From positions 330,001-362,000 of the forward strand of contig CBDCNV010000002.1 of NCBI GenBank assembly GCA_965219535.1: DNA of 32,000 bases. Direction: 5' to 3'. Below the pieces are notes generated by a model that had not been told where the DNA came from, did not search any database, and saw only the letters and a list, made by a program, of their open reading frames with translations. This document shows positions 27,844 through 28,376 of the stretch, piece after piece. Made by a program: the position numbers and the translations under genes. Source of the DNA: Opitutales bacterium. Lineage in GTDB: Bacteria > Verrucomicrobiota > Verrucomicrobiia > Opitutales > PNEW01. Position 1 is the stretch's first letter. Every line of letters starts with the position of its first letter.

Positions 27844-27846
27844 CAT

Positions 27847-27880
27847 CCAATTAGGAATTAGGAATTATGAATGAAGAATT
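27847..27880 (-). repeat. Heptamer-repeat array A (inverted orientation) just after atpG
   Basis: The plus strand reads CC AATTAGG AATTAGG AATTATG AATGAAG AATT. The reverse complement is AATTCTT CATTCAT AATTCCT AATTCCT AATTGG, the same AATTCNT unit as arrays B, C and D. Confidence 0.75.
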
Positions 27881-27948
27881 TACCTTGAATTAATAGATGT
27901 CATTCTTAACAAACCAGTTAATAAAACATAATAAAAAAACCCAAAAAT

Positions 27949-27987
27949 AATTCTTAATTCATAACTCATAATTCCTAATTAATCATT
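27949..27987 (+). repeat. Heptamer-repeat array B (direct orientation) abutting the start of the four-helix-bundle gene
   Basis: AATTCTT AATTCAT AACTCAT AATTCCT AATTAAT CATT. It pairs with array A at 24 positions, with one bulged heptamer. Confidence 0.75.
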
Positions 27988-27988
27988 A

Positions 27989-28351
27989 GTGAGAGATGAT
28001 CTTGATTTAAAGGAAAGAACCTTAAATTTTGCGCGGCAGATTATAAGATTTTATTCAGCACTACCAAAGACAGCAGATGCACAAATTATTGGAAAACAAA
28101 TGCTCCGTTCTGGCACATCGATTGGTGCAAATTATCGCGAGGCTTATCGCGCGCGTTCGAAAGTCGAGTTTATCGCAAAAATGGGAGACTGCCTGAAAGA
28201 ACTAGATGAAACCTACTATTGGTTAGAACTATTAAAAACAGAAAAATACATCACACCTGAAAAGCTAGAAGCCACTCGCGACGAAACAAATCAATTAATA
28301 GCTATTTTCGTAACCATAATTAAAAAAACCAAAGCAAATCTCAATTCATAA
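27989..28351 (+). CDS. Four-helix-bundle protein of the 23S rRNA intervening-sequence protein family (PF05635/TIGR02436-like; DGR Avd is a relative)
   Basis: 120 aa. LKERTLNFARQIIRFYSALPK, MLRSGTSIGANYREAYRARSKVEFIAKMGDCLKELDETYYWLELL is the family's characteristic sequence. GTG start. The gene sits on the same strand as the atp genes, between atpG and atpD. Confidence 0.85.
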   Translation: MRDDLDLKERTLNFARQIIRFYSALPKTADAQIIGKQMLRSGTSIGANYREAYRARSKVEFIAKMGDCLKELDETYYWLELLKTEKYITPEKLEATRDETNQLIAIFVTIIKKTKANLNS

Positions 28352-28368
28352 TTCATAATTCATAATTT
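28342..28368 (+). repeat. Heptamer-repeat array C (direct orientation) spanning the stop of the four-helix-bundle gene
   Basis: C AATTCAT AATTCAT AATTCAT AATTT: three perfect tandem heptamers. 22 of 25 positions are complementary to array A. Confidence 0.8.
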
Positions 28369-28376
28369 ATCCAACC

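Follow-up and report, generated by a model that had tools for sequence, protein, structure and literature searches.

In the 32,000-nt stretch of Opitutales DNA analyzed here (hereafter the window; assembly GCA_965219535.1, contig CBDCNV010000002.1, positions 330,001 to 362,000), the F1Fo ATP synthase operon is interrupted between atpG and atpD by a small gene of the four-helix-bundle (4HB) family, which is accompanied by complementary arrays of a 7-nt repeat. Taken as a whole, we lean toward reading this spacer as a promoter-less cassette of the type found in the intervening sequences (IVSs) of ribosomal RNA, inserted in the sense orientation, with arms that would pair in the transcript and would likely be processed by RNase III. 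We regard the assignment to the class of IVS-type cassettes as quite probable, and the RNase III step, which is argued by analogy, is put forward tentatively and with some doubt. The best explanation for the class would be that such cassettes are the same kind of element as the rRNA IVSs, living in intercistronic spacers.

The 4HB gene and its heptamer arrays

The atp operon is canonical and occupies ~23.1-30.2 kb of the window on the + strand. The upstream host gene is atpG, encoding F1 gamma (26965-27843, +; the orthologous locus that we number L161 matches PF00231), and the downstream host gene is atpD, encoding F1 beta (28377-29798, +). Between the end of atpG at 27843 and the start of atpD at 28377 lies a gap of 533 bp, which has a G+C content of ~35-40% compared with ~48% around it. 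The sole long open reading frame (ORF) in this gap is the 4HB gene (27989-28351, +), which starts with GTG, encodes 120 aa, and shares the strand of the atp genes. An initial annotation of the window had described the gamma and beta genes as split by 533 bp carrying a same-strand 120-aa ORF, with which our coordinates agree, and it had placed the ORF in the 23S rRNA IVS/four-helix-bundle family. The profile search that it proposed bore this out, as the protein passed the curated cut-offs of both PF05635 (23S_rRNA_IVP; 77.4 bits, cut-off 33.8 bits, E 1e-21; residues 4-106 against model positions 2-103 of 106) and TIGR02436 (NCBIfam ‘four helix bundle protein’; 99.6 bits, cut-off 24 bits, E 1e-28; model positions 2-109 of 109). 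The protein also matched PDB entry 2RLD (E 2e-25, residues 3-117), an entry with five chains, and pentamers have been reported in papers for the 4HB homologues XCC0516 and Avd. PADLOC returned no defense-system match for the ORF. When the 32-kb window was searched with Rfam, the only match was one tRNA (31097-31169) and no rRNA was found; the site of the element is between atpG and atpD, not inside an rRNA gene helix.

Period-7 arrays were located with Tandem Repeats Finder plus a repeat finder. Array A (27849-27880, +), the left, purine-type arm, starts 5 nt after the atpG stop, holds 4.6 copies of GAATTAG/GAATTAT/GAATGAA units (AATTAGG type), and contains stop codons in all three frames. Its complement, array B (27947-27987, +), is a right, pyrimidine-type arm of 4.9 units that ends 2 nt before the GTG of the ORF, and the sequence lying between the two (27881-27946, +), which forms the loop of an A-B hairpin, is shown by comparison with relatives to be the decayed 3’-end remnant of an older 4HB gene copy. 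A second right-type arm, array C (28336-28367, +; 3.6 units), overlaps the final codons of the 4HB ORF, including its stop, and leaves 9 nt to the atpD ATG. The order of segments is therefore atpG stop, A, remnant, B, the 4HB gene from its GTG to a stop within C, C, 9 nt, and atpD. Arrays A and B are 91% complementary and arrays A and C 84% complementary, each over 32 nt, while B and C are direct repeats within a longer repeat (50 nt, 80%) that extends over the 3’ end of the 4HB gene. The heptamer motif has 12 matches in the window compared with 0.1 expected, a count equaled by 0/100 shuffles, and heptamer units were absent at all other gene starts inspected.

Terminal inverted repeats capable of forming a long closing stem are thus present as both A-B and A-C pairs, the best of which encloses the gene remnant only. 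The A-B hairpin has a predicted energy of -29.3 kcal/mol (z = -5.7), which was equaled by 0/200 shuffles, and the minimal A-C stem one of -20.2 kcal/mol (z = -5.2). The initial annotation held that inverted arrays bracket the ORF. This was right insofar as A is inverted relative to both B and C, but B and C repeat each other in direct orientation and the strongest stem, A-B, closes around the remnant. Its further claim, that the flanking arrays have the geometry of an IVS stem, agrees with the 23S IVS of Coxiella, which carries tandem purine-rich heptamers inside terminal inverted repeats.

A solo array of the B/C type also occupies the atpA-atpG spacer (26926-26957, +). It is composed of CCTAATT/CATCATT units, is 82% complementary to array A, fills nearly the whole spacer, and stops 7 nt short of the atpG GTG. 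A core of 22 nt has the identical sequence in three related loci (L001, L002, and L081) despite a dS of ~0.5. Since other Opitutales have a 4HB gene at the atpA-atpG junction, this array may be the scar of a lost cassette.

At the left end of the element, an 11-nt tandem duplication (GCATCAAATTA / GCATCCAATTA; 27832-27854, +) supplies the atpG stop codon ahead of array A. It is common to the window and L081 and absent from L001 and L002, in which the atpG stop lies inside the first heptamer. An ATCCAA repeat was considered as a target-site duplication and rejected, as it is part of this 11-nt duplication and is missing from L001. No consistent direct duplication was found flanking the arms in the window, L001, or L002.

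Insertion, inheritance and decay in atp operons

To place the spacer among its relatives, we used an atpG-based metagenome scan, which gave 80 further atp operons, 61 of them with a measurable atpG-atpD junction. In these 61 the atpG-atpD spacer has a median length of 36 nt and is ≤60 nt in 49. None of the 61 has a 4HB copy between atpG and atpD, 58 have no 4HB gene in the operon, and the remaining three (L011, L030, and L053) have one at another junction. The proposal of the initial annotation that the gene had been inserted into an otherwise contiguous operon is upheld by this junction comparison and by the deletion in L081 described below. Orthologous cassettes at the same position were found in L001, L002, L161, L162, and L163; L001 and L002 are Opitutales metagenome-assembled genomes, and their proteins are 82% and 98% identical to that of the window, respectively (L002 being OY829953.1). 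In L081, whose atpG is 96% identical to that of the window, the spacer measures 177 nt and is made up of the left arm, the remains of a gene 3’ end, and a right arm, with no intact gene. Because the more distant L001 has the gene, L081 is best read as a deletion derivative, plausibly formed via recombination between direct repeats. Sporadic presence among relatives together with an ORF-less derivative is a trait of IVSs, and both were found here.

Comparing the window with L001, the 4HB gene has a dN/dS of 0.18 at a dS of 0.44, while atpA, atpG, and atpD have a dN/dS of ~0.036 at a dS of 0.57. The gene is functional and under purifying selection and has been carried along with the operon, and the sequence comparisons indicate that the cassette is a lineage-specific derived insertion in one Opitutales lineage that has since been inherited vertically. 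The initial annotation suggested a selfish mini-element, but current mobility is not supported by these data, given a single copy in the window and vertical inheritance at the divergence just described. The arrays themselves vary in copy number among the orthologues, with C ranging from ~1 to ~4 units. Arms are 77-94% identical among orthologues compared with 51-62% for the loop, a contrast that is merely suggestive because repeat arrays align easily, and the five orthologous A/B arms show one possible compensatory change, too few for statistics. We also observed in L002 a 1-nt deletion (6270-6280) that truncates the 4HB protein after ~91 codons. Either the gene is a pseudogene there or the deletion is an error of the long-read assembly; a different assembly from L002 encodes an intact 120-aa protein with 98% identity (P0001).

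The gene could instead be imagined as an old, fixed accessory of the F1Fo ATP synthase, such as an assembly or regulatory factor, flanked by repeats that are ordinary low-complexity sequence. Five related assemblies share the gene at this site, which would suit such a role, as would the purifying selection acting upon it. It is nonetheless missing from most of the related operons and deleted in L081, unrelated copies sit at other atp junctions, the same unit of gene plus arms recurs between unrelated genes in other phyla, and comparable arms flank very few other ORFs (see below). We give this idea hardly any credence, and on the comparative data a fixed ATP synthase accessory gene is excluded.

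The copies at other junctions are instructive in this respect. L053 has a 4HB gene at atpA|atpG plus a gene-less heptamer hairpin at atpG|atpD (1337-1470), L030 has its 4HB gene at atpD|atpC, and L011 has one directly 3’ of atpA (atpA|atpG). The three proteins are 58-68% identical to that of the window, and each has its nearest relatives in other contexts or phyla, not in the other two loci. The other atp junctions were hit independently. Among other Verrucomicrobia, gene-less inverted-heptamer hairpins also occupy the atpG|atpD or atpD|atpC spacer in L145 (3552-3664), L136 (6117-6221), and L160 (4861-5023). The two gene-less hairpins that were folded, those of L053 and L145, gave z-scores of -3.1 and -6.9, respectively, and the arm hairpins of relatives overall range from z = -2.7 to -6.9. 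In L086, a 281-nt spacer (6367-6648) is dominated by (CCACCTT)n-like repeats.

Other small genes were also seen to interrupt atpA|atpG in verrucomicrobial operons (L030 3176-3556, L105 3379-4001, L115 2583-3245, and L011 6378-7900); these inserts include a PDDEXK_3 (GxxExxY-type) gene, ORF6N-domain genes, and a two-gene insert with a putative DNA methyltransferase. The idea that the arms carry interchangeable cargo was dropped because the ORF6N genes are armless and the arms of the one PDDEXK_3 gene, though 7-periodic, are weak (score 9).

Around the operon of the window, the ORF order over 19954-31017 is a 625-aa ORF, a 196-aa ORF, atpBEFHAGDC, and an HpcH-type gene. We provisionally take the 625-aa and 196-aa ORFs to be mnmG and trmB. 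A 23-nt inverted repeat of 91% identity (31384-31406/31509-31531), with a loop of 102 nt, lies in a low-GC stretch ~200 nt 3’ of the tRNA gene.

Cassette architecture among homologues

We next consider the homologues, sampled as the best 80 of 179 candidate loci from a scan of a genome collection with the 4HB ORF. Their proteins are 56-98% identical to that of the window and they come from at least five phyla, namely Verrucomicrobiota, Chloroflexota, Nitrospirota, Desulfobacterota/Geobacteraceae, and Alphaproteobacteria. The flanks of 77 of the 80 loci were adequate for scoring arms, and complementary upstream and downstream arms with a score of ≥13, the maximum reached over 1540 shuffled controls, were present in 47 of these (61%). 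As a control, 612 other ORFs from these loci were scored, of which just 1.8% reached that value (odds ratio 86, Fisher p 1.5e-41), and most of the armed control ORFs adjoin a cassette. Pairing is specific to the locus, with a mean score of 19.7 for a locus’s own arms vs. 11.9 for the arms of other loci. The upstream arm is purine-rich on the sense strand in every case (mean 78% purine) and the downstream arm is its complement. The units conform to a nearly C-free consensus, GAAKKAW (GAATTAT, GAATTAA, GAAGGAT, GAAGTAA, and others), with ~3-5 units per array. When arm length was set against the pentamer, the median was 4.3 units, a figure that is biased because the detector misses arrays of <3 units.

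The cassettes are also fitted closely to their hosts. The upstream neighbor is co-oriented at 61 of 74 loci, the upstream ORF stops within the left array or ≤10 nt from it at 27 of 29 loci, and the right array ends 3-12 nt 5’ of the downstream start codon at 19 of 27 loci; the cassette thus fills the entire intercistronic gap. The host genes are varied, including a split transketolase (N|C), purU with a MetE-like gene, lipopolysaccharide (LPS) genes, Fic genes, and BREX-like genes. The preference for highly transcribed operons anticipated in the initial annotation did not emerge, as homologous cassettes sit among many kinds of co-oriented gene with no such trend.

Several homologues are armless. 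Those of L021, L044-L047, L057, and L061 (at ~5960-6360 in each) lie between genes of ~920 aa and ~320-530 aa, and in L044, L046, and L061 the armless 4HB gene overlaps the downstream gene by 13 nt. The neighbors in L021, the sole pair checked in Pfam, are hsdR (ResIII + EcoEI_R_C) and hsdS (Methylase_S). The type I restriction-modification (R-M) operon would be a second, operon-integrated context of the 4HB family. Period-7 arrays are also frequent elsewhere in the homologue genomes, often as gene-less purine/pyrimidine hairpins. Long, near-perfect intergenic heptamer arrays were seen in L006 (2900-2976), L015 (11538-11640), L027 (8218-8313), and L037 (5808-5978), with units such as (AAGGATG)x11, (GGAGGAT)x~14, and (CCCTCAT)x~13 and up to ~24 units; the same genomes carry armed 4HB cassettes.

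The close fit to stop and start codons could mean that the arms act in translation, such that the coupling of atpG to atpD is kept across a ‘translationally transparent’ insert of 533 nt. The left array would supply stops in all frames, SD-like (Shine-Dalgarno-like; GGA) motifs, and ATGA restart motifs, pairing of left and right arms would mask the region 5’ of the downstream start, and ribosomes ending the upstream gene would melt the stem. Apart from the stop and start placements among the homologues, this idea draws upon the left arrays that close all three frames (23/40 vs. 25% expected), upon the position of array A just after the atpG stop and of array C just before an atpD that has no SD, and upon TAACTGA heptamer arrays just 5’ of start codons, which have been proposed to act in translation in Beggiatoaceae (PMC4679880). 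It leaves the same architecture inside rRNA unexplained, where no translation crosses the stem. Many cassette-free atpD genes of relatives are SD-less too, so the cassette is unnecessary to explain SD-less initiation, and the 4HB gene of the window itself starts with a GTG that lies directly 3’ of array B and has no SD. A translational role for the arms seems to us quite unlikely.

The arms might also work at the level of DNA, as inverted arrays of binding sites at the ends of a mobile or recombining cassette, much like the subterminal repeats of transposons, in which case RNA pairing would be a by-product. Their reader would be the pentameric 4HB protein itself or a recombinase acting in trans. 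This idea draws upon a unit conserved across phyla, in arrays of the length given above, upon homologues that crystallize as pentamers, and upon the nucleic acid binding of Avd. The two arms of a pair differ chiefly in the order of unit variants rather than by point mutations and show no G.U bias, array copy number varies among orthologues, and the gene in L081 was apparently lost by recombination between the B/C direct repeats. The distribution is likewise patchy, identity between copies of different phyla is 60-72%, and the insertion sites within atp operons are independent. Against this, no target-site duplication was found, the cassette has no recombinase, the window holds a single copy, and a related chromosome gave one locus among the best 80 of 179 candidates (see below). 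In addition, the strong co-orientation with the host and the exact filling of gaps suggest a constraint at the transcript level, and the stem of the Coxiella IVS is demonstrably an RNA substrate (PMC4990558). On balance, we find a purely DNA-level role rather unlikely.

Relationship to rRNA intervening sequences

The reading that we favor, an IVS-type cassette acting in the transcript, can be set out as a series of steps. In one Opitutales lineage, a PF05635 cassette with ends made of degenerate-heptamer arrays was inserted into the atp operon. It was later remodeled in part: decay of an earlier copy left the A-loop-B hairpin, and one relative lost the gene between direct repeats. We infer that the cassette is co-transcribed with the atp genes because a promoter and terminator scan of the atpG-atpD spacer gave nothing on the + strand, with matches on the - strand at chance level, and because the cassettes are co-oriented with their hosts across loci. 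The complementary arrays, whose capacity to pair is evident in silico, would form an AU-rich duplex of ~30 bp in the RNA, which would draw the end of atpG and the downstream reading-frame starts together. RNase III may then cut this duplex, as it does in the 23S IVSs of Coxiella and Leptospira, which have the identical build, and the cut transcript would consist of an atpBEFHAG part and a (4HB-)atpDC part, neither of which would be harmed.

IVSs with S23p four-helix-bundle ORFs have been known in rRNA since about 1990, at sites such as helices 45, 25, and 9 of 23S rRNA. To our knowledge, their origin, mobility, and protein function are unexplained, and free-standing copies of the gene are merely annotated ‘four helix bundle protein’. 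The case that is most informative for the present element is the helix-45 IVS of Coxiella burnetii 23S rRNA, which carries an S23p (PF05635) ORF and, 5’ of it, three or four tandem purine-rich heptamers that lie inside a terminal stem of 28 bp (Warrier et al. 2016, PMC4990558). That ORF is preceded by AGAAGA, three copies of GACAGAT, and a degenerate GACAGAA, the number of heptamers varies among strains, and rapid amplification of cDNA ends (RACE) placed RNase III cuts in the stem, with the 5’ site at the start of the first heptamer (PMC4990558). Its authors termed the IVS a selfish element of unknown origin and reported the ORF to be decaying and probably untranslated (PMC4990558).

The atp cassette resembles the IVSs of Coxiella and Leptospira in its protein family, in its sense orientation within the host transcript, and in having no promoter of its own. 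Both have terminal inverted repeats with a stem of ~28-32 bp and tandem purine-rich heptamers 5’ of the ORF, those of array A being of the GAATTAG type, and both show variable heptamer numbers, ORF-less or decayed derivatives, and a sporadic distribution. They differ in the host site, which is here an intercistronic spacer of a protein-coding operon rather than an rRNA helix, and in RNase III excision, which was mapped for Coxiella and is proposed by analogy for the atp element. The protein of the window is also under purifying selection, unlike the decaying Coxiella ORF, and the intact gene of the window lies outside the best stem. The idea of an IVS-like cassette in the initial annotation is upheld as regards architecture and evolution.

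A number of observations weigh against our reading. The RNase III cleavage is argued purely by analogy, and a stem that served only as a substrate of this enzyme would have no need of a 7-nt unit kept across phyla. Mismatches between the arms comprise 16 G.U vs. 18 A.C and are mostly swaps of unit variants; with no excess of G.U, the pairing bears no mark of selection on RNA, and we claim no RNA-specific signature. The duplex, rich in AU and with three mismatches, would be melted by any ribosome that terminates 5 nt upstream, at the atpG stop. Folding the spacer in silico, as the initial annotation had advised, gave a divided answer, since the arm hairpins are significant but the whole 561-nt region folds no better than shuffles (z = -0.37). 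The strongest stem, A-B, holds the gene remnant alone, and because its loop is the remnant, the intact ORF stands between two arrays of the same orientation and is bracketed only by the weaker A-C pair. Among the close homologues 39% are armless, some of them within type I R-M operons. Thirteen homologue loci without close flanking ORFs were searched with Rfam and gave no rRNA and no other family, so none of those close homologues is rRNA-borne; with no rRNA in the window either, the link to rRNA IVSs rests on one paper. Finally, no second copy was found in the window, the 4.5-Mb chromosome OY829953.1 gave one locus among the best 80 of 179 candidates, and present-day mobility is unsupported, no second copy having been seen.

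Other known systems share some of these features. Avd, the accessory protein of diversity-generating retroelements (DGRs), belongs to the same four-helix-bundle fold family and is a positively charged pentameric barrel that binds a specific RNA stem-loop (bioRxiv 10.1101/2023.10.23.563531). The 4HB gene of the window, in contrast, adjoins atpG and atpD rather than a reverse transcriptase or template/variable repeats, and heptamer arms are undescribed for DGRs. Intergenic heptamer repeats, namely TAACTGA in Beggiatoaceae, cyanobacteria, and Bacteroidetes and the cyanobacterial STRR, likewise consist of 7-nt tandem units in 2-6 copies. These repeats are also gene-oriented, end a few nt before start codons, contain stops in all frames, and are patchy across phyla (PMC4679880), but they are direct repeats only, have another sequence, and are unreported as inverted pairs around a PF05635 gene. 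Integron cassettes are similar in being small, promoter-less, sense-oriented genes that rely on upstream transcription, with one imperfect inverted-repeat element per gene, whereas the 4HB cassettes have arms to either side of the gene, built from heptamer arrays, and occur singly, scattered in ordinary operons rather than arrayed. The gene-less hairpins of 100-180 nt in operon spacers (L081, L053, L145, and A-loop-B of the window) are reminiscent of REP, BIME, and MITE elements, except that their stems are heptamer arrays and that at least some of them demonstrably derive from decayed gene cassettes, their loops containing 3’ gene remnants.

What was already known comprises rRNA IVSs with this ORF, the upstream heptamers of Coxiella, and heptamer direct repeats upstream of genes in other bacteria (PMC4679880). 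Full-text literature searches, whose coverage was incomplete, found no account of free-standing PF05635 genes with inverted heptamer arms as an operon-spacer cassette, nor of such a cassette inside an ATP synthase operon. A broader proposal is that heptamer-armed PF05635 cassettes are a widespread class of transcript-embedded elements that settle in the spacers of ordinary operons in many phyla, of which rRNA IVSs would be only the best-known special case, and that GAAKKAW, at ~3-5 units per arm, is read by the cassette’s own pentameric protein. The 4HB pentamer would then bind the arms, as RNA or as DNA, and control the processing, expression, or movement of the cassette. This extended version is possible, though we hold it to be on the unlikely side.

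From these results, the full IVS design of a sense ORF with inverted purine/pyrimidine heptamer arms exists outside rRNA, wedged exactly between the cistrons of essential operons. Cassettes of the same design separate co-transcribed genes in at least five phyla, so the range of these “rRNA” elements extends beyond rRNA. The design is also common and recognizable from sequence, as is evident from the large difference in arm frequency between close homologues and control genes, and annotators could recognize it as a source of operon interruption. What had been a curiosity of a few pathogens becomes a problem of comparative genomics that offers independent insertions, decayed copies, and empty sites in large numbers, from which testable hypotheses are gained: the splitting of polycistronic mRNAs by RNase III, translational coupling across a stem, and the reading of 7-nt units by a pentamer.

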